Shown: piece by piece, positions 7,577 through 28,698 of the stretch
Layout: each line of letters starts with the position of its first letter
Position numbering within the stretch: position 1 is the stretch's first letter
Translations under genes and position numbers: made by a program
Virus record (IMG/VR): IMGVR_UViG_3300001528_000580
Location: 64,001-128,000 of that record
DNA from: a virus
Lineage: Duplodnaviria > Caudoviricetes
Length of the DNA: 64,000 nucleotides
Strand: one strand, 5' to 3'
Notes under the pieces: model-generated
Seen by the model: only the letters and a program-made list of their open reading frames with translations
Databases searched by the model: none
Told to the model about the DNA's origin: nothing

Positions 7577-7768
7577 ATGAAAACAATTCTGCTGATTCCA
7601 AGTATGGTAATAATTAATACTACTGCTATTGCAGTTATGCCAAAGTTGTTTTCTTATTTTGGTTATAATAATTGGCAAGCAGGACTTTTTTGTGTTGGGC
7701 TTATTGCTGTTATTATTGGAATGGTTTTCTTGATGGTAATGCACGATGACAGAAAGGGAAGAATATGA
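7577..7768 (+). CDS. small membrane protein
   Basis: Two hydrophobic segments, RBS. Confidence 0.7.
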   Translation: MKTILLIPSMVIINTTAIAVMPKLFSYFGYNNWQAGLFCVGLIAVIIGMVFLMVMHDDRKGRI

Positions 7769-7884
7769 AAATTATTCAAAGAAAAGCGTATTGTGCTTTC
7801 TGTGGCAAAAAAGTTTTGCTCCCTTTGGAACGGTGGAAAATCCTTAAACAAGGTGGTATGTTTGTTTGCAAACGTTGCAGTTAA
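7765..7884 (+). pseudogene. Zn-ribbon mini-gene split by a 1-nt frameshift
   Basis: CAFC in one frame and CKRC in another; one extra A in gcaaaaag restores the frame. Confidence 0.4.
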
Positions 7885-7893
7885 GGAGTAATT

Positions 7894-8193
7894 ATGAATT
7901 TCAGACAAATTATGGCAGAAATGGCAAGACGGAAAGTTCAATTTCATAAAGATGAAAAATGGAACGAAATTTCTTGTTTTGGTTTATTTCAATGGGGAAC
8001 AATTTCAAAATACCTTGTTGGTAATGAAAATATGAAAACTTTTGTTTCGCCTCTTTTTATAAATTCATTCGGTTCAACAAGAGAAAATAAAATTATTTGG
8101 GTTAAACCAACAAAAGAATGTTGGGAAAAATATATCAAACCTTTGATTGAAAAACACACTCTTGTTGAATTACAAGAAATGTCATGGGGATAA
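7894..8193 (+). CDS. hypothetical protein
   Basis: ORF, AAGGAG RBS. Confidence 0.75.
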   Translation: MNFRQIMAEMARRKVQFHKDEKWNEISCFGLFQWGTISKYLVGNENMKTFVSPLFINSFGSTRENKIIWVKPTKECWEKYIKPLIEKHTLVELQEMSWG

Positions 8194-8197
8194 AAAT

Positions 8198-8416
8198 ATG
8201 ATTTGGTTAATTATTGGATTGATTGTTTATGCAGTAATCGGCATTATTTTAGGTGTTGGTTATTGTATTGTTTCTCAATCAGATTCAGGGTTTGTTAAGG
8301 ATCTGTTTTTCAAAATAATTCCTATAATGTTTATTTGGCTGATTGTGATTATATTAGCAGTAATAGCAATTGTCCTTTATAAAATTGCTAATGCAATATT
8401 TAGTATTATTGAATGA
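8198..8416 (+). CDS. membrane protein
   Basis: Two TM segments. Confidence 0.7.
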   Translation: MIWLIIGLIVYAVIGIILGVGYCIVSQSDSGFVKDLFFKIIPIMFIWLIVIILAVIAIVLYKIANAIFSIIE

Positions 8417-8599
8417 TGCAACTATCATTCTTTTTTTATCATGTTTTGCGAAAATAAAAGATATATCATTATCGATAATAATATAATATGGTATCTTCAG
8501 CTATCATAAAAAAATGAAAAAATTATTGTTTTTGTGCTTGAAATTTCAAAGAATTGATGTATGTTATATATTGTAAACAGGAAAGGAAATACAAGCAAT

Positions 8600-8722
8600 A
8601 TGGATTATGAAATGATTTTTTTGTTGGTCGGTGTAGCGGTAATTATCGGCATTAAAATCTATGTTGCTTATCAGAAAACCAAACCTGAAAAAAGTTCAAA
8701 AAAAGTTCACAAGAATACTTGA
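8600..8722 (+). CDS. small membrane protein (40 aa)
   Basis: Promoter, RBS, TM segment. Confidence 0.55.
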   Translation: MDYEMIFLLVGVAVIIGIKIYVAYQKTKPEKSSKKVHKNT

Positions 8723-8854
8723 AAAACTCAAAAACTGGTGTATGTTATAGTAAAGCAAAAGAACAGAGAACTTGAAAAAGAGCAAATAAAAAAATTCAAA
8801 AAAAGTTCAAAGTTGAGCTTGAAAAAAACACAAAACAGAGTATATTAAGTAATG

Positions 8855-9160
8855 TAAACGATAGCTCATAAGAGCAAATGATAAATCGAAAAAATCGGAA
8901 TGGCGATAAGGAAAGGATGGTTATAAAATGAAGTAACGTTAAAATAACAACCAACCTCTTGACATGATAAATAAAATTAAACGTTAACGCCGCAACAATA
9001 TGGTGAATAAAATGAAGTAACGAAGAAATAAACTTAACTTTTTGAATATATCGCTGTGTTAGCTAAAACATTAACGCCGAAGTCGGCATTAAAAGCGGGT
9101 AAGCGGAATGAATAAGATTCGAGATCGAACTTAACAAGTTATAAACTTGAATATTTGCTT
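8855..9160 (+). ncRNA. putative ncRNA with internal repeats
   Basis: Tandem promoters upstream, no ORF; ATAAAATGAAGTAACG x2 and AAACRTTAACGCCG x2. Confidence 0.5.
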
Positions 9161-9162
9161 AA

Positions 9163-9181
9163 AATTTCTACTTATGTAGAT
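9163..9181 (+). CRISPR. solitary Cas12a-type repeat handle AATTTCTACTTATGTAGAT
   Basis: Matches the 19-nt type V-A crRNA handle AATTTCTACT-NNN-GTAGAT. Confidence 0.8.
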
Positions 9182-9322
9182 AAACTCACAGGAGAAATGG
9201 AAAATGAACATCGACTACGCCGCAAATACAAACATTCACCCTCCGTAACGTTTAATTAACCTTTTTTTAACTTAAATAATAATGATTAGATTTTTTTAGT
9301 TTTTCTTTTGATTGTTTCTTTT

Positions 9323-9341
9323 AATTTCTACTCGTGTAGAT
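9323..9341 (+). CRISPR. solitary Cas12a-type repeat handle AATTTCTACTCGTGTAGAT
   Basis: Type V-A handle, loop variant. Confidence 0.8.
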
Positions 9342-9419
9342 ACTAAGACAAAAAGTAATCAGGATAATCTTCCAAATGATGAAATTTTGTTAAATAAAAG
9401 TAAATAATCAGCCGTTGAT

Positions 9420-9495
9420 GCGTTCTTAACTCAGTCGGTAGAGTATCACCCTTTTAAGGTGAGAGTCATGGGTTCGAGTCCCATAGAACGTACCA
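9420..9495 (+). tRNA. tRNA-Lys(TTT)
   Basis: Full cloverleaf, CTTTTAA loop, encoded CCA. Confidence 0.95.
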
Positions 9496-9892
9496 TTTTC
9501 TCAAAATTAGGTTGTAGAGAAGAACCTAAAAAATATAACAAAAACTGCTCTTGTTAAAATCATTTGAGATTTCGATTGGCAAGATACAAAGCATTGGAGC
9601 AAAAAAACCATGCACTTTATTAGAGCCATGCCGTAAAATAATTTCTTCATTTGTAATTTTCGATTATGTAATCCTTTTGAATAGCCTGTTATGAAAATAG
9701 CAGGTTATTTTTTTGTTTTATCATTTTCTTTTCTATTTATTATCTATAATTATCGATAATAATATATTTCAATATTTGGTTGTAGATAAAAAAATGAAAA
9801 AAAGTTTTATTTTAACTTGTAATTTTCAAATAATGATGTATAGTATATTTAGAGAACAGAGAAAACCACACTTAATATAAAGGGAATAAAAC

Positions 9893-10087
9893 ATGTTGGC
9901 TTTTGAAAAAACTCTTATGACCGTTTATTTCTCGAATGAAAACAAAGAATTAGCACCCCTTTTTATTGATGGCAAAATTGAACAGCAAAGGGACGGTTCT
10001 TTTTATGTCATTGTGAACGGTGAGCTTGTTGCCAAGTATGGCAATTATAACGATGCTGTGCAATTCGTCAAAGAAAACTATAAATAA
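9893..10087 (+). CDS. hypothetical protein
   Basis: ORF with promoter and RBS. Confidence 0.7.
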   Translation: MLAFEKTLMTVYFSNENKELAPLFIDGKIEQQRDGSFYVIVNGELVAKYGNYNDAVQFVKENYK

Positions 10088-10096
10088 AGGTTTGAC

Positions 10097-10405
10097 ATGC
10101 TTTATCTTGAAAAAGTAAATGTTCAATATGGTGCTCCAATGGGGCGTAGAGAATGGAATGAATGTCCCGGAATAAAAGTCTGTGGCAGTATTCAAGAAAT
10201 AGCCATGAGAGAAGGCTATGATTCAGGCGGCGCATATTGGGGAACTCCTAATAATGTATATTGCGCACAATACAATCATTTTGATAAGAATACAAATAAA
10301 GAGTATTCCGGCAGAGTGTTTGTACGTGCCTTTTCTCGTGAAAGTGCAATAGAGCAGGTGAATAAGATTAGCGGTTGGGAAAATGTAAAATTCCGCAAAA
10401 AATAA
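10097..10405 (+). CDS. conserved phage protein
   Basis: YGAPMGR...GYDSGGAYWG motif. Confidence 0.75.
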   Translation: MLYLEKVNVQYGAPMGRREWNECPGIKVCGSIQEIAMREGYDSGGAYWGTPNNVYCAQYNHFDKNTNKEYSGRVFVRAFSRESAIEQVNKISGWENVKFRKK

Positions 10406-13721: not shown

Positions 13722-14051
13722 TTGAAATTTAGTTGTTTGAGTGTATAGTATATATTGTAACAAGAAAACGTTACAAGTTGATTGAAAATGAGGTTAAATA
13801 AAAAACTGATTTTCTTTGAAATAAGACTTGAAAAACTTAAAAATGGTGATACATTATAAGTAACAAGCAAAAAGCTGTTAAGTTGATAAAAAAAAGAAAA
13901 ATCAAAAAAAGTTAAAAATAAGACTTGAAAAAATCAAAATCGATGATATAGTATATAGTATCAAAGAAAAAGAAAACAAGTCAAGTTTATAACAAAAAAA
14001 ATTAAAAAAGTTTACAATGCCACTTGAAAAATTAAAAAATGGTGGTATAGT
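13722..14051 (+). promoter_or_regulatory. four tandem sigma70-like promoters
   Basis: TTGAAA at 13722, 13828, 13926, 14024, each with a -10 TA(T/C)A(G/T)T. Confidence 0.75.
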
Positions 14052-22327: not shown

Positions 22328-22498
22328 ATTTTTTTCAAAATTGAACTTGAAAAACCAAAATCATGTGTTATATTAAGTTTTGTTGACAGAGAAAAGCAGT
22401 TGTGAAAACAATACATATCAAAGTCAATAAAAAAAATGAAAAAAAGTTCTGAATTGAACTTGAAAAAAACAAAACTCGATGTATATTGAGTAATGTGA

Positions 22499-22525
22499 CA
22501 GGGAAAACCTGATGCTGATTGAAAA
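22499..22525 (+). promoter_or_regulatory. boxB-like hairpin plus boxA-like antitermination leader (duplicated at 24461-24486)
   Basis: CAGG-GAAA(A)-CCTG then TGCTGATTGAAAA directly after promoters. Confidence 0.55.
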
Positions 22526-22531
22526 AAATTA

Positions 22532-22778
22532 AACTTATGAGCGGTAGGCTTAGAAGTAGCCATCCGATAATGAGTGAAAGGAACCACCAATTAGTGCAAA
22601 ATGTCAAGAAATATCTAATGGTTCAATTATAAACGACTTAGAATCGATAAACTTGATTCAAGGTATATGTTGATGATGTGCATTTGGTAAAATGGGAATA
22701 AGCATGGTTAATGACCATCACCCAGATTAGATAATACTATGGGGTCGCTTTCTTTGGTGTAATAACACATCATAAGTT
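22532..22778 (+). ncRNA. 23S rRNA H43/H44 (GAC, uL11-site) mimic RNA, copy 1
   Basis: GGTAGGCTTAGAAGTAGCCATCC...GAGT-[insert]-GTGTAATAACACA, closed by aacttatga/tcataagtt. Confidence 0.8.
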
Positions 22779-22800
22779 CTTTTTTATAAATGCTGTTTGA

Positions 22801-22819
22801 AATTTCTACTTATGTAGAT
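22801..22819 (+). CRISPR. solitary Cas12a-type repeat handle
   Basis: AATTTCTACTTATGTAGAT. Confidence 0.8.
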
Positions 22820-22931
22820 AAAATTATTAGAATGTCAAAACTTTTAATTTGTGAAATTTTGTGAGTTGGACTATTATTGTTATAACTCAATAATGAAAAT
22901 AGTAACAAATGAACCGACAAGTTGAATATAA

Positions 22932-23016
22932 CATGTCGATGAAAGTATCTTGCGAGTGTGGTTTGGTGACACCTTCTGCGAGTATTTCGTGGAGATAGAG
23001 GTTCGATTCCTACATG
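22932..23016 (+). ncRNA. tRNA-like element (T-arm plus long irregular stem)
   Basis: AGG-TTCGATT-CCT T-loop, catgt/acatg closing stem. Confidence 0.4.
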
Positions 23017-23143
23017 AAAAATCGAAAGTATTGTGATAGCAATTATAATTTGCTAATGTCTTCGGACGATCATTAAGTTGAGGCGCATAAATACTTAATG
23101 ATGATAATGTCACTATCACGGCATTCTTTTTTTAGATTTAAAT

Positions 23144-23219
23144 GGACCGTTAGCTCAGTGGTTAGAGCAGGAAACTCATAATTTCTTGGTCGGGGGTTCA
23201 AGTCCCTCACGGTCCACCA
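23144..23219 (+). tRNA. tRNA-CAT (probably Ile2; elongator Met possible)
   Basis: Cloverleaf, CTCATAA loop, G1-C72, CCA. Confidence 0.93.
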
Positions 23220-23487
23220 TTTAAAATTCCCATCTACTCGATGTAAAGAGTCGGCAAAACATCTAACGCCGTTAAATTGATGTGTTTTCCTCAAGGCTAA
23301 CGAGGTTTTTTACCAACAGTTTTTAAAATTAAAACGGTTGGCTCTGATGAGATGGGTTATAAACCTAATTGGTGAGTAACCGAAACATAAAGGTACAGTC
23401 TTTACCTTTAGTGATGGTAAAACATAGACACAATTTTGACGTTAATCATGTTAGCGTTGCTCCATGCTATTAGCTAGTCATGAGTTA

Positions 23488-23549
23488 TGGATGCTGTTGG
23501 TTAGTAGGAGCGCAATTAGCTCTGACGGGGTTCAACTCCCTGCAATCCA
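23488..23549 (+). ncRNA. tRNA-like mini RNA lacking a D-stem
   Basis: tggat/atcca, gagc/gctc hairpin, GACGGGGTTCAACTCCCTG T-arm. Confidence 0.4.
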
Positions 23550-23609
23550 GTTTCTTCAAGTGGTTGCAAACTCTTGAAGATGCTCTTGAGCATTGAGCAA
23601 AAGCGAAAG

Positions 23610-23646
23610 CAACATAGATGACAGCTTGGAAAGACAAGCGATTATG
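23610..23646 (+). ncRNA. possible C4-antisense-like hairpin
   Basis: TGACAGCTTGGAAAGACAAGC resembles the GACAGCnnGGAAAGACnnGC motif (recalled, not searched). Confidence 0.35.
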
Positions 23647-23652
23647 ATTTTT

Positions 23653-23711
23653 AGTCAGAGGGCATTGGTCAAGACCAATCGATTACGTGGTGTAGTGAAG
23701 CATATCTGACT
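23653..23711 (+). ncRNA. permuted tRNA-like element (T-arm, mini acceptor loop, D-arm)
   Basis: agtcaga/tctgact closes attgg-tcaaga-ccaat, cg-atta-cg, TG-GTGT-AGTGAA-GCAT. Confidence 0.5.
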
Positions 23712-23844
23712 TTTGTTTTCCAAATTTTTCTCTCTTTTTGGTTGGCTAGTAGATAAATATTTATCTACTAGCTTTTTTATTTTCAAACTATTGAATTTAT
23801 TGTATATTGTGTTATATTATATTAAATTCATACAAGGAAAAATA

Positions 23845-24393
23845 ATGCGTAGAAAAGAAATACATAAACCAGATCATCCAAATGCATATAAAAATGGTAA
23901 TATTTTAGAATATGTTTATATTGCATCAAAAAAATTAAATAGACCATTATTGAAAGGTGAGATTGTTCATCATATAGATGAAAATCCATTTAATAATGAT
24001 GAAGATAACCTAATGGTATTTGCTACAAAATCAGATCATAATAAATTTCATGCAAATGGACTTGATTTTAACATAGTTGAAAAATTAAGTAATGGTTCTT
24101 ATAAAATAAAAGATGATGTTATGCTAATAAGTAGCAAAGAATTTATTTGTGAATATTGTCATAAGAGATTTATTGCAGAAAAAATAAATCATAAGAAAAA
24201 TAAAATATATTGTTCAATTGAATGTTCAAATAAAGATAAAGAAAAGTTCGATATTCCAATTGAACAATTAAAAGAACTAGTTAAAACATATAATTTAACC
24301 AAAATAGGAAAAATGTTTGGTGTTTCTGACAATGCAATCAGGAAAAGATGTATTAAAAATAACATCGATTTTAAAAATAAGAAAAAATCATAA
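23845..24393 (+). CDS. HNH homing-type endonuclease with Zn finger and C-terminal HTH
   Basis: VHHIDENPFNN..NL..H, CEYC/CSIEC, GVSDNAIRK. Confidence 0.85.
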   Translation: MRRKEIHKPDHPNAYKNGNILEYVYIASKKLNRPLLKGEIVHHIDENPFNNDEDNLMVFATKSDHNKFHANGLDFNIVEKLSNGSYKIKDDVMLISSKEFICEYCHKRFIAEKINHKKNKIYCSIECSNKDKEKFDIPIEQLKELVKTYNLTKIGKMFGVSDNAIRKRCIKNNIDFKNKKKS

Positions 24394-24491
24394 AAAAATT
24401 CAATTTTTTTATTTTGGGAGCTTGAAAAAAACAATATTTGGTGTATATTAAGTATTGTAACAGGGAAACCTGATGCTATTTGAAAAATTAT

Positions 24492-24569
24492 AGAGGTGCT
24501 TGGAAAAACTTTCAACGAGTAGACTTTTAATCTAAATACGTGCAAACAGGTTTTTTCGCTTATTCCTCT
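24492..24569 (+). ncRNA. scaffold RNA displaying a tRNA-Lys(UUU)-like anticodon arm
   Basis: agagg/cctct scaffold shared with 26105-26244; taga-CTTTTAA-tcta. Confidence 0.6.
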
Positions 24570-24657
24570 TTTTTTCAAATATTTTTAAAAATAATACTTG
24601 AAAAAATCAATATTAGGTGTATATTAAGTATTGTAATAGGGAGACATGATATTTGAA

Positions 24658-24725
24658 AATTTCTACTTATGTAGATAAACAAGGAAAACTTGAGGTTGAT
24701 TAAAAAAATTTCTACTTATGTAGAT
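24658..24725 (+). CRISPR. Cas12a-type mini-array: handle, 30 nt, handle
   Basis: AATTTCTACTTATGTAGAT at 24658-24676 and 24707-24725, just after a promoter. Confidence 0.8.
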
Positions 24726-24988
24726 AAACATTAGAAACAAATGGTGAAAAGCCGTCAGGAATCTACCCATCACGCACCATGATTAGTGATGTGGTTTACT
24801 GAAAACGAGGTACGAAAGAACAGAGTCTTTTTGAGTATATCTCATAAGCTATAGCGTACAACGAGGCGATGCTAGTGAAATGCAATAAAAGTAGCGGTCA
24901 TGGTACAACCTGCATAGGATGTGGAGTAGACTGAAATATATCAGCTACGTATCAAGAAATTGATTAAACATGTAATTTCTAATGTTTT
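24726..24988 (+). ncRNA. about 260-nt multibranched structured RNA
   Basis: aaacattagaaa/tttctaatgttt closing stem; tcag-tctac/gtaga-ctga and accatga/tcatggt inner stems; no ORF. Confidence 0.6.
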
Positions 24989-25330
24989 TTGCTCTTATGA
25001 GCTGATGGACTTGTACTCAATTGCAACTTAACATTATTCATAATGTTGATGTAAAAGGTCTGACGTACAGTACCTAAAATAAAGTAATGACCTGCCTAGA
25101 TTGAAGCACTAGAAACTTATGCTTCACAGCTTTATGTCGATATTGAGCTGTTTATCCGTAGGATAAAAAATAATCGGTAATCCAAGATGTAATTCTTAGC
25201 ATTGCAAGCATACTAAGTGAGGATTTAAAACATTAATAACTTGATGCTGATAGGTAAGCTATCACTTTTTCAAGATTTTTTTATATTTATCATATATGTG
25301 TAAAATATAAATAATGTTGATTGAAAATTT

Positions 25331-25622
25331 TGTCAAAAGTTGAAATGTTGGATTAGAGGCATCCATCATCTAAGGAGTAACCCACGACATTGAACATTGC
25401 AACTGTAATCACTGATACTTAAAAAGGAAACACTTACAATAAACCAGTGAGCCATAATTAACTGAATAATGACAAAAACTGTTAGGTTGGTATAAGTGAT
25501 AACTTTAAAAGAATGTGATATGCTTACATGTCCTAATTCAGTAGGAAGGTTCGATGGCTAACGAGGAGCATGAGATTACATGCTGAAAGGTTTTTGGCAT
25601 AAAAGCACATCAAGTTTTGACA
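25331..25622 (+). ncRNA. 23S rRNA H43/H44 mimic RNA, copy 2
   Basis: ATGTTGGATTAGAGGCATCCATCATCTAAGGAGT-[insert]-GCATAAAAGCACA, closed by tgtcaaaagttga/tcaagttttgaca. Confidence 0.8.
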
Positions 25623-25649
25623 TTTTTATTCATACAATATAATTGTATA

Positions 25650-25761
25650 GCTATCATGCTAGCTAACTCGTGATACATCAGTGGTTAAAAGGAGCTGTAT
25701 ATCACTGAAAGAGTTTGAACTTACAGCTTGAAAAACTTGATCATGATTGTGGTGCGATAGT
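25650..25761 (+). ncRNA. pseudoknotted ncRNA
   Basis: cagtggt/atcactg interleaved with agctgta/tacagct. Confidence 0.45.
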
Positions 25762-26104
25762 TTTTCTTCTTGACCCACACATGGAGTTGGTTAGCTACCA
25801 ATACTCCATGATTTTTATGAAAAAAGTTCAGAAATGAGCTTGAAAATAAAAAAATCAATGCTATATTATAGTATTGAAAGAAAAAAATAGACGATAGCAT
25901 GGAGACGTTTTTCTTGAAATAAAGAAAAATTTAGACAATGCAACTAACTTGAAAATTTGATGGTTCAATCAAGTTACGGAGCTATTCTGAAAGAGATAGC
26001 AATTATTATCAGAAATCATTTAGCTTATGGATGTGAAAGCTATGAACTTATGTTCTAAAGTATGTCAAAGAGATATATAATCATTTTTGCTGATTGAAAA
26101 TTAT

Positions 26105-26244
26105 AGAGGTGGCATAAAAACGTTCAACGCTGATAACGTCGAGGCTGTAGGTTCGAGTCCTATTATTATAGATAGATAATATCAAACTATAATATAGCTC
26201 AATTGGGTAGAGCACGTAAAAAATGTTTTTATAGTAATTCCTCT
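26105..26244 (+). ncRNA. circularly permuted tRNA-Ile(GAT)-like RNA (YrlA-like topology) in shared scaffold
   Basis: Order is anticodon loop, T-arm, acceptor hairpin, D-arm; all arms pair. Confidence 0.75.
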
Positions 26245-26258
26245 TTTTATAAATTCAT

Positions 26259-26347
26259 GTCTGGGTATGCGAATTGGCATAGCAAATTGACTTAAAATCA
26301 ATTGTATTCCGAAAGGTATGAGGGTTCGAGTCCCTCCCCAGATACCA
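26259..26347 (+). tRNA. tRNA-Leu(TAA)
   Basis: Cloverleaf with long variable arm, CTTAAAA loop, CCA. Confidence 0.93.
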
Positions 26348-26492
26348 TTTTTACCCAAGAGATTAAATAAAAAATAATCTCTTGGGTTTTTTTATGTATT
26401 TTTCTTAAATTAACGGTTCGAGTCCAGTTTTAATATTTTTTTATATTTTCTTTTATATGAAAAATTTTAATATGAAAGGAAGATATTAAAAA

Positions 26493-27467
26493 ATGACTAA
26501 ATATACTTTAGATGAATTTAGAGATGCAGTAGCTAACAGCAATAATATAAGACAAGTATGTTTAAAATTAAATATATCAGCTTATGGTGGTAGTTATGAA
26601 TATATAAAAAGAAAAATAAAAAAATATAATATTGATACAAGCCATTTTAATAAAAAATCAACAAAAAGAATTACTTGTTTTTCATTACCATTAGATATAA
26701 TTTTAGTCAAGGGAAGTTTTTATACAAATACATCTGTTTTAAAAAATAGATTAATTGCAAATGGAATATTAGAAAACAAATGTTATAGTTGTCAAAGGAC
26801 AAAGTGTGAAATTAATGGAAAAATGATAAATATGCCATTAGAATTACATCATATTGATGGTGACAGAAACAATAATGAAATAGAAAATTTAACTTTATTA
26901 TGTCCAATATGCCATAATTTGACTACTAATTTCAGGGGAAAGAAAAAAGTTAAAAAATTGTATATGTATTGTAAAAAATGTCATAAAGAAATTAGACAAA
27001 ATAAGTATGAATTATGTAAAGATTGTTATGTTGAAGAAAATTATCCAAGAGAAACAAAAGTATATCCAGCGTTTTGTTCAGAATGTGGAAGAGAACTTAA
27101 TAAATCAAAATCAGGATTATGTAGATCGTGTATTAATAAGAAAATGACTACACTTAATAAACCAAGTAAAGAAGTATTAGAAAAAGAGATACAAGAGAAT
27201 AGCTTTCTAGCATTAGGAAGAAAATATGGAGTTTCAGATAATGCTGTTAGAAAATGGTGCAAACAATATGGTATTGATTTTAAACATGGAATAAGAAAAG
27301 AATCTTTACAAGGATTAAAAAAAGGCAGAGAAACTCAAGCATATCAAGCAAAATTAAAAAGAATATGTCCTAAATGTGGGAAAAAGAAATCACCAGATTC
27401 AGAATTGTGTAGAACATGTTATTTAGAAGAAGAATTAAAGAAAAAACAAGCAACATATTTAAATTAA
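26493..27467 (+). CDS. HNH endonuclease with multiple Zn fingers and HTH
   Basis: LELHHIDGDRNNNEIENLTLLCPICH, CxxC pairs, GVSDNAVRKW. Confidence 0.88.
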   Translation: MTKYTLDEFRDAVANSNNIRQVCLKLNISAYGGSYEYIKRKIKKYNIDTSHFNKKSTKRITCFSLPLDIILVKGSFYTNTSVLKNRLIANGILENKCYSCQRTKCEINGKMINMPLELHHIDGDRNNNEIENLTLLCPICHNLTTNFRGKKKVKKLYMYCKKCHKEIRQNKYELCKDCYVEENYPRETKVYPAFCSECGRELNKSKSGLCRSCINKKMTTLNKPSKEVLEKEIQENSFLALGRKYGVSDNAVRKWCKQYGIDFKHGIRKESLQGLKKGRETQAYQAKLKRICPKCGKKKSPDSELCRTCYLEEELKKKQATYLN

Positions 27468-27541
27468 TTTAAACAATTATAAGTTATAGATATTATATTA
27501 ATATAACTATTAATAACTTATTTATTATAAGGATAAAAATA

Positions 27542-28114
27542 ATGTTAGATGATAATAAATTATACTGTATACAATGTGGTAAAGAAAGAGAATTAGGAAG
27601 AAGATATTGTAAAGAATGTCATAAAAAAGTTCAAAGAGAAAGATTCAGAGAAAAATATAAAACTAAAGGAAGATATAGATATACTATTACTTGTATGTTT
27701 TGTAATGAATTATATAATTTAGCGGTAAGAAAAGATCAAAAGTTTTGCGAAAATTGTTGGAAAGAGAGATTACAATTTATAACTAAATATCATTCGACAA
27801 ATCAATATGAAAATAAGTTTGGTCAAAATAAACATAGACAAATTGTAGAATCAATATTGAATAGAAAGTTGTTTTATAATGAAGTAGTTCATCATTTAGA
27901 TCATAATCCAATTAATAATTCTATTGATAATATTATAGTTTTAGAAAGAAAGGATCATATGGCATTACATAATTATTTATATGATTATGAATTTAAATTA
28001 TATAAATTACATGGAAAACAGTATAAAGAATATTGGAATGGAACAATAGAAAAAGATGTTACATTAAAATATCTTAATGAAAATAAAATAAATTATATTT
28101 CTTTTGAAAACTAA
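27542..28114 (+). CDS. HNH endonuclease with N-terminal Zn fingers
   Basis: HRQIVE...VVHHLDHNPINN..N...H. Confidence 0.85.
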   Translation: MLDDNKLYCIQCGKERELGRRYCKECHKKVQRERFREKYKTKGRYRYTITCMFCNELYNLAVRKDQKFCENCWKERLQFITKYHSTNQYENKFGQNKHRQIVESILNRKLFYNEVVHHLDHNPINNSIDNIIVLERKDHMALHNYLYDYEFKLYKLHGKQYKEYWNGTIEKDVTLKYLNENKINYISFEN

Positions 28115-28324
28115 TTTGACTTTTTATATAATTGTGCTATATTATATATGTTGTTAGAGAAACGTTTTTTAACATCTTCTCCAAAAATCGTGAATTACCT
28201 TTTTCTCTAACAACACTTTTTTTAAAAAAATATTATAATAACACTTGATTTTTTAAAAAATTGATGTATATTATATTTTGTAATAGGAATAACAAACAAA
28301 TTCCTATTGGTTGATTAAAATTTT

Positions 28325-28422
28325 AACCATGTGGTATTAACTATTTCTTTTTGTACGCTTGTTTTTACGGTTTTCCACGAATTGATTTCAAATGAAAAAA
28401 GAAAAAAGAATACCGCATGGTT
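28325..28422 (+). ncRNA. putative long-hairpin sRNA
   Basis: Own promoter and boxA-like leader; aaccatgtggtatt/aataccgcatggtt followed by a U-run. Confidence 0.5.
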
Positions 28423-28698
28423 TTTTTATGCCTTTTTATTTGACTTTTAAAGGATTTTGGGCTATATTATGTGCAAACATATAAAAGGAGCTAGTAAAAA
28501 TGGATAAGAAGCAAATAGAGCCTGTTTCAGCCAAAAATAACAATAACAAATATATTCCTGACTGGTATATTGGAGAACCAAAACCTGTAAAAAAAATTAA
28601 AGATAATAAGAAAAAAGAACCTTACTTCAACGAATGGAGTTAATATTTCCTTATATTTTTATATTGTTAAAACATTATTAACAAAATATGAGGATTTT

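Follow-up and report, generated by a model that had tools for sequence, protein, structure and literature searches.

Antitermination through boxA and the Nus factors is textbook knowledge for ribosomal RNA (rRNA) operons and for phage lambda. The present analysis concerns signals of this kind in an island of RNA genes at positions 22,328–28,499 of a 64,000-nucleotide window (the whole stretch that was analysed), which covers bases 64,001–128,000 of the viral record IMGVR_UViG_3300001528_000580. The record is a complete 440,868-bp gut phage with terminal repeats and a guanine plus cytosine (GC) content of 25.1%; coordinates marked G000 refer to the whole phage genome and all others to the window. 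The island is likely to be a cluster of at least seven short untranslated units that would be read by host RNA polymerase, most of them with a front end of the type found in the rRNA (rrn) operons of Victivallis, the assigned host, and with Nus-mediated antitermination suggested by that likeness.

The rrn signals boxB-boxA-boxC are read by NusB-NusE, by NusA and NusG, and by SuhB (PMC12360218, PMC10250234, PMC4807359), and boxA recruits NusB/E in both rrn and lambda complexes (PMC12360218). The phage leaders have the same hairpin-boxA order and a boxA identical to that of the host genus. As in rrn, they are placed behind tandem promoters and again inside the predicted transcript, with putative untranslated stable RNAs downstream and, in some units, with a closing helix after boxA. 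They differ in that they head transfer RNAs (tRNAs), a CRISPR (clustered regularly interspaced short palindromic repeat) array, and other RNAs instead of rRNA, that the units are many and short instead of one 5-kb operon, and that boxC is not clearly present, except for a continuation of the host leader after boxA at G000 253,714. Lambda nut is likewise a case of a phage that uses boxA and host Nus factors to sustain transcription. In lambda, however, boxA is followed by boxB, boxB binds N, and the operons are early and protein-coding, whereas the phage described here has the host rrn order and sequence (an N-like protein was not searched for). The tRNA clusters of T4-like and T5-like phages are generally known to contain homing endonuclease genes and show the same interleaving of tRNAs, remnants, and HNH genes, but the RNA of the island is mostly non-tRNA and its units carry rrn-type leaders.

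Reports also exist on boxA at CRISPR loci. Stringer 2020 (PMC7665894), as cited and tested in Legionella in PMC7862264, has reported that transcription of CRISPR arrays in bacteria is promoted by a boxA lying upstream of them. The phage array likewise lies about 120 nt behind the motif, and each solitary Cas12a repeat handle of the island stands directly behind it; the arrays reported there are bacterial, whereas here the element is phage-borne and common to tRNA and other RNA units. Racr RNAs (RacrVA1-3; PMC10651486) and the Cas-repressing Cracr RNAs (bioRxiv 10.1101/2024.10.29.618823) are likewise single promoter-driven handles, located away from cas genes and of the repeat type of the host group. 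The phage handles, which resemble them in these features, differ by sitting in longer predicted transcripts behind boxA and beside a phage Cas12a with a changed repeat stem. Literature searches that combined boxA with tRNAs of phages, with CRISPR systems encoded by phages or with huge phages gave no description of leaders of the rrn type in front of RNA genes in a phage. The locus is a clear host-matched case of a virus that copies the whole promoter-hairpin-boxA front end of the rrn operons of its host genus, specifically onto non-coding RNA genes.

The host was assigned from the CRISPR spacers of the phage. Comparison of its Cas12a array with 401 genomes of the phylum containing an Opitutales metagenome-assembled genome gave matches in three genomes of 4.6–5.5 Mb (G021, G105, and G126). 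Spacer 10 (27/27) and spacer 6 (27/28) match protospacers in these genomes, each with a 5' TTTG or TTTC, which is the Cas12a protospacer-adjacent motif (PAM). The NusB of G021, the genome with the best match, is letter-identical to that of Victivallis lenta/Victivallaceae bacterium BBE-744-WT-12. From the PAM-flanked protospacers and the NusB identity, the phage is assigned to Victivallis bacteria. NusB and Rho are present in 5/5 host-lineage genomes searched, and S10 (NusE) is universal. Neither NusB nor S10 was found in the phage genome.

Because the G021 assembly contains no rRNA, the rrn operons of its relatives were used instead, from four genomes in the same genus and six in the same family. 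The genus leaders (six from the four genomes) consist of a −35 box CTTGAAA or CTTGCA, a spacing of 16–17 nt, a −10 box TATATT, a short hairpin, then GCTGATTGAAAA or GTTGATTGAAAA, and then TTGAATAGTG, with boxA located 110–200 nt 5' of the 16S gene. The 16S-23S spacers carry an additional hairpin followed by GGTTGATTGACAA, TGTTGTTTGAAAA or GGTTGTTTAAAAA, and the family rrn operons show the same leader and spacer pattern. The position and layout of the host hairpin and boxA are those of boxB-boxA in rrn operons (PMC10250234, PMC12360218). The boxA of the Victivallis lineage has a G in place of the first C of the gamma-proteobacterial consensus GYTCTTTAANA (PMC5725501). The rrn operons of a Succinivibrio outgroup carry the ordinary AGTTCTTTAAAAA, unlike those of the Victivallis lineage and unlike the phage.

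Eight boxA-like sites are present in the island, all on the plus strand, at 22513, 22791, 24474, 24647, 24694, 25315, 26088, and 28309. The original prediction, made from the letters of the sequence, had listed the same eight positions, with the only shift at 24694 (given as 24695), and had proposed a comparison with the host rrn boxA; in that comparison the phage motif matches the genus and family rrn leaders and spacers and not the outgroup form. The 12-mer GCTGATTGAAAA at 22514, 26089, and G000 253,714 is identical to the rrn leaders of three genomes of the Victivallis genus (G484, G485, and G228), and the variants of the form GGTT...AAAA (24694 and 28309) are similar to those of the host 16S-23S spacers. 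A degenerate pattern covering all eight sites, which bears on the possibility, named in advance, that the motif is no commoner than in shuffled DNA, has 11 matches in the window compared with 4.0 ± 2.0 in shuffles, and 8/11 fall within the 6-kb island. Since this pattern was drawn from the sites themselves, an independent, host-derived pattern was sought. The pattern taken only from host leaders has eight plus-strand matches and one minus-strand match in the phage, whereas dinucleotide shuffles give 0.7 per strand. Of the exact 13-mer the genome has two copies, both of them in the island, and with at most one mismatch it occurs five times on the plus strand and never on the minus strand. The host leader hairpins lie in different registers in an ungapped alignment, and the host-derived pattern with shuffles and a hairpin test were used rather than a covariance model.

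The motif is also restricted in placement. Seven of the eight plus-strand matches to the host pattern are in non-coding leaders and one is inside a gene. The island holds three of the eight. Another follows a promoter at 13,777, one precedes a tRNA-like RNA with tRNA-Ile and tRNA-Gln (G000 204,060), one heads a tRNA array beginning with tRNA-Asn (G000 253,714), and one lies between cas12a and the phage CRISPR array, about 120 nt 5' of the first repeat. Among 69 promoter-like plus-strand sites, five are followed by the motif and all five head RNA units; promoters ahead of protein genes, among them those of an HNH gene (23791) and of a protein gene at 28,500, are without it. A perfect hairpin ends 0–1 nt 5' of boxA at 6/12 sites, with five different stems, against a background of 2.2% (p ~9e-8), and the remaining sites are without a clear hairpin. 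The phage promoters have the form CTTGAAA-16-TATATT. The hairpin ends 1 nt 5' of boxA and about 25 nt 3' of the −10 box, as in the host. By sequence, boxA is placed between consensus −10 boxes, which end 17–36 nt earlier, and RNA genes (with an uncertain start site at 26088 and G000 230,868), and it is predicted to be unpaired in folds. Sequence identity, enrichment, and restriction to RNA units together make the rrn-type boxB/boxA reading of the leaders well supported at the level of sequence, and the phage probably borrows the host rRNA transcription machinery for its non-coding RNAs. At G000 253,714–253,740, 20 consecutive bases equal the Victivallis rrn leader, extending beyond boxA into TTGAATA. 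One core match each was also seen in three other AT-rich huge phages (224–640 kb). The candidate reading of the motif as the 5' half of a Cas12a repeat was rejected; 36-nt repeats with the same handle, and the repeat of the phage itself, have unrelated 5' halves.

The features of the island, with the evidence for each in brackets, are as follows.

22347–22415 (+): promoter P1 (TTGAAA-16-TATATT) and a hairpin/boxA leader copy in decayed form
22460–22487 (+): promoter P2, in tandem with P1 (84.5% identity over 71 nt to the cassette at 24418–24487)
22499–22525 (+): boxB-like hairpin CAGG/CCTG (22499–22511) and boxA (22513–22525) (12-mer as in rrn leaders of the Victivallis genus)
22530–22790 (+): structured RNA A, containing a hairpin like helix 43 of 23S (about 22546–22563) (fold z −2.4; comparison with host 23S)
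22791–22819 (+): internal boxA-like site (22791–22803) overlapping a canonical Cas12a handle (22801–22819)
22895–23125 (+): tRNA-like or T-arm remnant and hairpins, weakly structured (fold z −0.6 and −1.4; no Rfam match)
23144–23219 (+): tRNA-Met (CAT) (ARAGORN; Rfam 70.6 bits)
23220–23735 (+): structured RNA with a T-arm-like hairpin near 23520–23545 (fold z −2.5; no Rfam family)
23744–23783 (+): intrinsic terminator of unit 1 (13-bp stem and U-run)
23845–24393 (+): HNH endonuclease gene with its own promoter (23791–23818), without hairpin or boxA
24422–24486 (+): promoter P3, hairpin CAGG/CCTG (24461–24472), and boxA (24474–24486)
24487–24575 (+): small RNA with a closing helix directly after boxA, then a U-run (predicted fold)
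24598–24725, first part (+): promoter P4 and a decayed leader with a boxA-like site (24647–24659) and a handle (24658–24676)
24598–24725, second part (+): hairpin CAAG/CTTG with a boxA-like site (24680–24706), and a handle (24707–24725)
24726–25270 (+): large structured RNA with an end hairpin and U-run (25248–25270) (fold z −2.3; no Rfam family)
25315–25327 (+): boxA, with an A/T-only hairpin 5' of it
25328–25817 (+): structured RNA B, 23S helix-43/44-like at 25345–25378, with a terminator-like hairpin (25780–25817) (fold z −2.0)
25840–26085 (+): promoter P5, then an RNA that lacks a boxA leader
26088–26100 (+): boxA, exact 13-mer
26101–26249 (+): tRNA-like RNA whose parts follow the YrlA-type order (T arm, closed acceptor-like stem, D arm) within a closing helix
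26259–26394 (+): tRNA-Leu (TAA) and an intrinsic terminator (26354–26394)
26493–28114 (+): two HNH endonuclease genes (26493–27467 and 27542–28114)
28116–28225 (+): promoter, long hairpin RNA, and U-run (fold z −4.5)
28245–28427 (+): promoter, 9-bp hairpin (28282–28308), spacer-type boxA (28309–28321), and a long closing-helix RNA with a U-run (fold z −3.5)

About 4 kb of gene-free DNA is contained in the island, with a GC content of 31–36% compared with 25% phage-wide, and the sole breaks are three HNH endonuclease genes. Among gaps without an open reading frame (ORF) of at least 100 aa in the phage genome, 24579–26492 is the third longest (GC 0.31) and 22591–23712 the sixth longest (GC 0.36), compared with 0.251 for the genome. 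The remaining top ORF-free gaps are further RNA loci: they hold the tRNAs arrayed at G000 253.5 kb, the CRISPR array, and another RNA island, at 7.6–10.1 kb of the window. The identity of the three interrupting ORFs comes from PHROGs (E 8e-34, 5e-37, and 2e-11); their Pfam matches are near threshold. The gap ranks, the GC values, and the PHROGs matches agree with the earlier description of a non-coding, GC-rich stretch broken only by HNH genes.

Generic promoter and terminator scans barely exceeded shuffles in this AT-rich DNA (62 compared with 48 ± 7.5), and the promoter calls therefore rest on the phage-wide cassette. The predicted promoters and terminators divide the island into at least seven promoter-to-terminator units, most of them ending in a hairpin and U-run, rather than a single operon. 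The first unit runs from P1/P2 to the terminator at 23744–23783 and contains RNA A, the internal boxA with its handle, tRNA-like debris, tRNA-Met, and a 0.5-kb fold. Unit 2 consists of P3 and a 90-nt RNA, unit 3 of P4 with two boxA-handle repeats and a 0.55-kb fold, and unit 4 of the boxA at 25315 and RNA B. In unit 5, P5 and an RNA without boxA are followed by the boxA at 26088, the tRNA-like RNA, tRNA-Leu, and a terminator. Units 6 and 7 are short hairpin RNAs at 28.1 and 28.3 kb, the latter with a hairpin and boxA of the spacer type ahead of it. Directly 3' of boxA, units 2, 5, and 7 have bases that form the 5' strand of a module-closing helix that ends in a U-run. No boxA is present in three of about 13 modules and in one promoter unit. 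The original prediction of a polycistronic island driven by tandem promoters with rrn-like boxB/boxA leaders is upheld for the front ends, which consist of sigma-70-type promoters (some in tandem), a boxB-like hairpin, and a host-rrn-type boxA. It was also correct that a CAGG-GAAA(A)-CCTG hairpin followed by boxA is duplicated behind two promoters, at 22499–22525 and 24461–24486. The word polycistronic applies to part of the island, since several RNAs per unit are found only in 22495–23783, 24633–25270, and 25875–26394 and the whole is split into separate units.

In the proposed mechanism, host RNA polymerase would start at the CTTGAAA/TATATT promoters copied from Victivallis rrn. The transcript would then present a small boxB-like hairpin and, 0–1 nt on, a single-stranded boxA of the host variant, with G where most bacteria have C. 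This nascent boxA would bind the host NusB-NusE(S10), and the addition of NusA, NusG, and SuhB would give an rrn-type polymerase complex that is Rho-resistant, fast, and an aid to RNA folding, so that stable RNAs could be produced efficiently without protection by ribosomes. The same leader would be used on two other tRNA arrays, and the motif is set ahead of the phage CRISPR array. The products of the island would be two tRNAs, one YrlA-like tRNA mimic, three solitary host-type Cas12a handles, two helix-43-like RNAs, and several other folds. HNH homing endonucleases, which are common in phage tRNA regions, would have settled between the units.

Several observations weigh against this mechanism. 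Some boxA-led units are only about 90–110 nt long (24487–24575 and 28325–28427) and would hardly need protection from Rho. A G>C skew runs along the whole plus strand, which may leave few good loading sites for Rho. The P5 unit (25840) and the RNA island at 7.6–10.1 kb are without the motif, and the two readable Cas12a array leaders of host-family genomes show no boxA. Some copies are duplicates of one promoter-leader cassette, and the motif sites are consequently not all independent. In addition, the C that is replaced by G in the phage is critical for function in E. coli (PMC5725501); the reading of the phage sites as boxA depends on the same G being carried by the rrn operons of the host. 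This lineage-specific variant makes host inference possible from boxA, and the leader offers a sequence-only route to the stable-RNA genes of a phage. It would also single out a set of unknown phage RNAs whose expression is deliberate and probably high, which makes them worth testing.

The Cas12a handles named in the original prediction are present as three canonical copies at 22801, 24658, and 24707. Promoter P4 lies 33 nt upstream of handle 24658, and handle 22801 lies inside unit 1. Unknown to the original prediction, the phage has an intact Cas12a of its own, with 1186 aa (G000 227,304–230,825; 709.6 bits over both parts), with a 14-repeat array behind it (G000 230,990–231,830). As its gene is about 140 kb from the island, the handles do not adjoin cas genes. 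The intact enzyme, together with the report that a single handle and downstream sequence suffice for a Cas12a CRISPR RNA (crRNA) (bioRxiv 10.1101/2024.10.29.618823), allows the handles to be read as guide RNAs for the phage's own Cas12a, as dispersed mini-arrays and not as decoys of the host enzyme. This is unlikely on the sequences compared. The 36-nt phage repeat has the stem TCTAA/TTAGA and the loop TTTG, whereas the solitary handles (9163, 22801, 24658, and 24707) keep the canonical stem. Cas12a arrays with the canonical stem and flanks occur in at least 7/144 host-family genomes, with two loop bases different from the phage handle, and the exact handle is also found within arrays of other bacteria. 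The 30 nt separating handles 24658 and 24707 are a copy of the hairpin-boxA leader and no spacer, and the DNA past the last handle enters the large fold. The exact 19-nt handle also stands alone in 12 other viral contigs (L008–L019), almost always with AAA behind it and in many cases without anything that resembles a spacer. The handles are most likely Racr/Cracr-like RNAs that would load the host Cas12a, and a role of the three host-type handles as decoys, resembling Racr RNAs, is plausible. The changed repeat stem may keep the phage CRISPR system apart from its own repeat look-alikes; Racr-like repeats together with a phage Cas12a of different handle raise the question of how the phage spares its CRISPR system from its own decoys.

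Handles were also seen elsewhere. In about nine phages of about 55 kb from one metagenome, the handle immediately follows a promoter and precedes a gene, and it is present in 640-kb and 224-kb phages as well. Four host-family genomes (L084, L086, L087, and L088) contain lone Cas12a-type handles that could be CreR-like regulatory crRNA-like RNAs. The second RNA island (7600–10100) has handles at 9163 and 9323, tRNA-Lys, and the same promoter cassette, without a boxA-like leader.

The RNA modules agree with their earlier descriptions to different degrees. Two are real tRNAs, as predicted, and pass the Rfam RF00005 gathering threshold (tRNA-Met with 70.6 bits and tRNA-Leu with 51.8 bits), and the unexplained folds are likewise confirmed, as the large folds match no Rfam family, are single-copy in the genome, and fold 2.0–2.5 standard deviations better than shuffles (z −2.0 to −2.5). 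The rRNA mimics are confirmed only in part because helix 44 is not kept. RNA B at 25345–25378 matches the GTPase-centre helix 43/44 of host 23S rRNA, in helix 43 and its flanks, at 30/34 positions with one compensatory pair (E 0.02), which is the best non-tRNA match between host rrn and phage, and RNA A has a shorter match at 22546. Of the uL11 site (helices 43 and 44), the helix-43 hairpin is kept in both RNAs and helix 44 is not recognisably kept. As for the tRNA mimics, one tRNA-like RNA with YrlA-type order is present below threshold, and the T-arm-like pieces fold no better than chance (z −0.2 to −0.6) and may be remnants. The tRNA-like RNA at 26103–26236 ("Ile") scores 23.6 bits against a tRNA threshold of 29 and is not a member of the family. 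Identity of the 26101–26249 RNA with YrlA, a bacterial Y RNA, was rejected; it scores 30.6 bits against RF02553 (threshold 69), only its tRNA-like part aligns, better to the tRNA-like half of YrlA than to the tRNA family, and searches of the phage and of five host-lineage genomes gave no Ro60/Rsr (TROVE) protein, which argues that it is not a functional Y RNA. In the boxA-led tRNA region elsewhere in the genome, ARAGORN reports a tRNA with anticodon CTA (labelled Pyl; G000 256,421–256,495), a possible amber suppressor. The phage tRNA-Ala (G000 255,080–255,116) shares 92% identity over 37 nt with its counterpart in the 16S-23S spacer of the host family.

A more far-reaching proposal is a genome-wide stable-RNA regulon on stolen rrn signals that serves as a double weapon, in which mass-made RNA mimics would act together with a soak of Nus factors that starves host rRNA synthesis. 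The mimics would be decoys of the host-type Cas12a repeat, uL11/thiostrepton-hairpin RNAs, and the tRNA-like domain, and the soak would come from a dozen strong promoter-boxA units. The phage Cas12a would ignore the decoys because its repeat stem has changed (orthogonal handles). This proposal is doubtful, and a decoy role is weakly indicated for the rRNA-like and tRNA-like pieces, which could equally be remnants.

Remnants are the basis of another, rather improbable explanation: the island would be a tRNA cluster in decay that HNH homing endonucleases have churned, the modules would mostly be pseudo-tRNAs and debris, and the cassettes would be role-less leftovers of duplication. The poorly folding T-arm-like pieces, the sub-threshold tRNA-like RNA, and the three HNH genes are consistent with it, as are the duplicated cassettes, among which the P1 and P4 leaders are decayed. 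A lone T-arm-like remnant (GGTTCGAGTCC type) is also located at 26411–26436, past the tRNA-Leu terminator and just 5' of an HNH gene. Against decay, however, stand large RNAs that fold better than shuffles and have a GC content above that of the genome, tRNA-free units in which promoter, hairpin, boxA, closing helix, and U-run are nevertheless all present, four handle copies that are 19/19 identical, and a boxA that is kept although the hairpin stems vary.

Very improbable is a real signal that is no antiterminator, such as a processing mark near closing helices, a phage-protein site or a sponge that would draw Nus factors from the host rrn operons: the module-closing helix does start at once after boxA in three units (24487, 26100, and 28325), as in the rrn leader-trailer layout with its RNase III stems flanking rRNA (PMC10250234), several units are too short to need antitermination, and at least 11 copies are behind strong-looking promoters, but identity with the host rrn boxA points first to host factors reading it, no phage-encoded NusB or S10 was found, and boxA also precedes long RNA operons (the tRNA array at G000 253,714 and the CRISPR array), where antitermination makes sense.

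Relatives of the phage were sought in several sets. The GenBank phage set contained no similar DNA except tRNA-Met and an HNH gene, and a scan with the leader pattern for related phages gave two stray matches only. The 127-aa flanking protein had no relative in viral_contigs and only two weak matches in metagenome_contigs (47% over 34 residues, in DNA of 55% GC). Searches with the phage DNA polymerase, as a single sequence and as an alignment, reached only relatives of 29–38% identity. The polymerase P0001 is 90% identical to the phage DNA polymerase.

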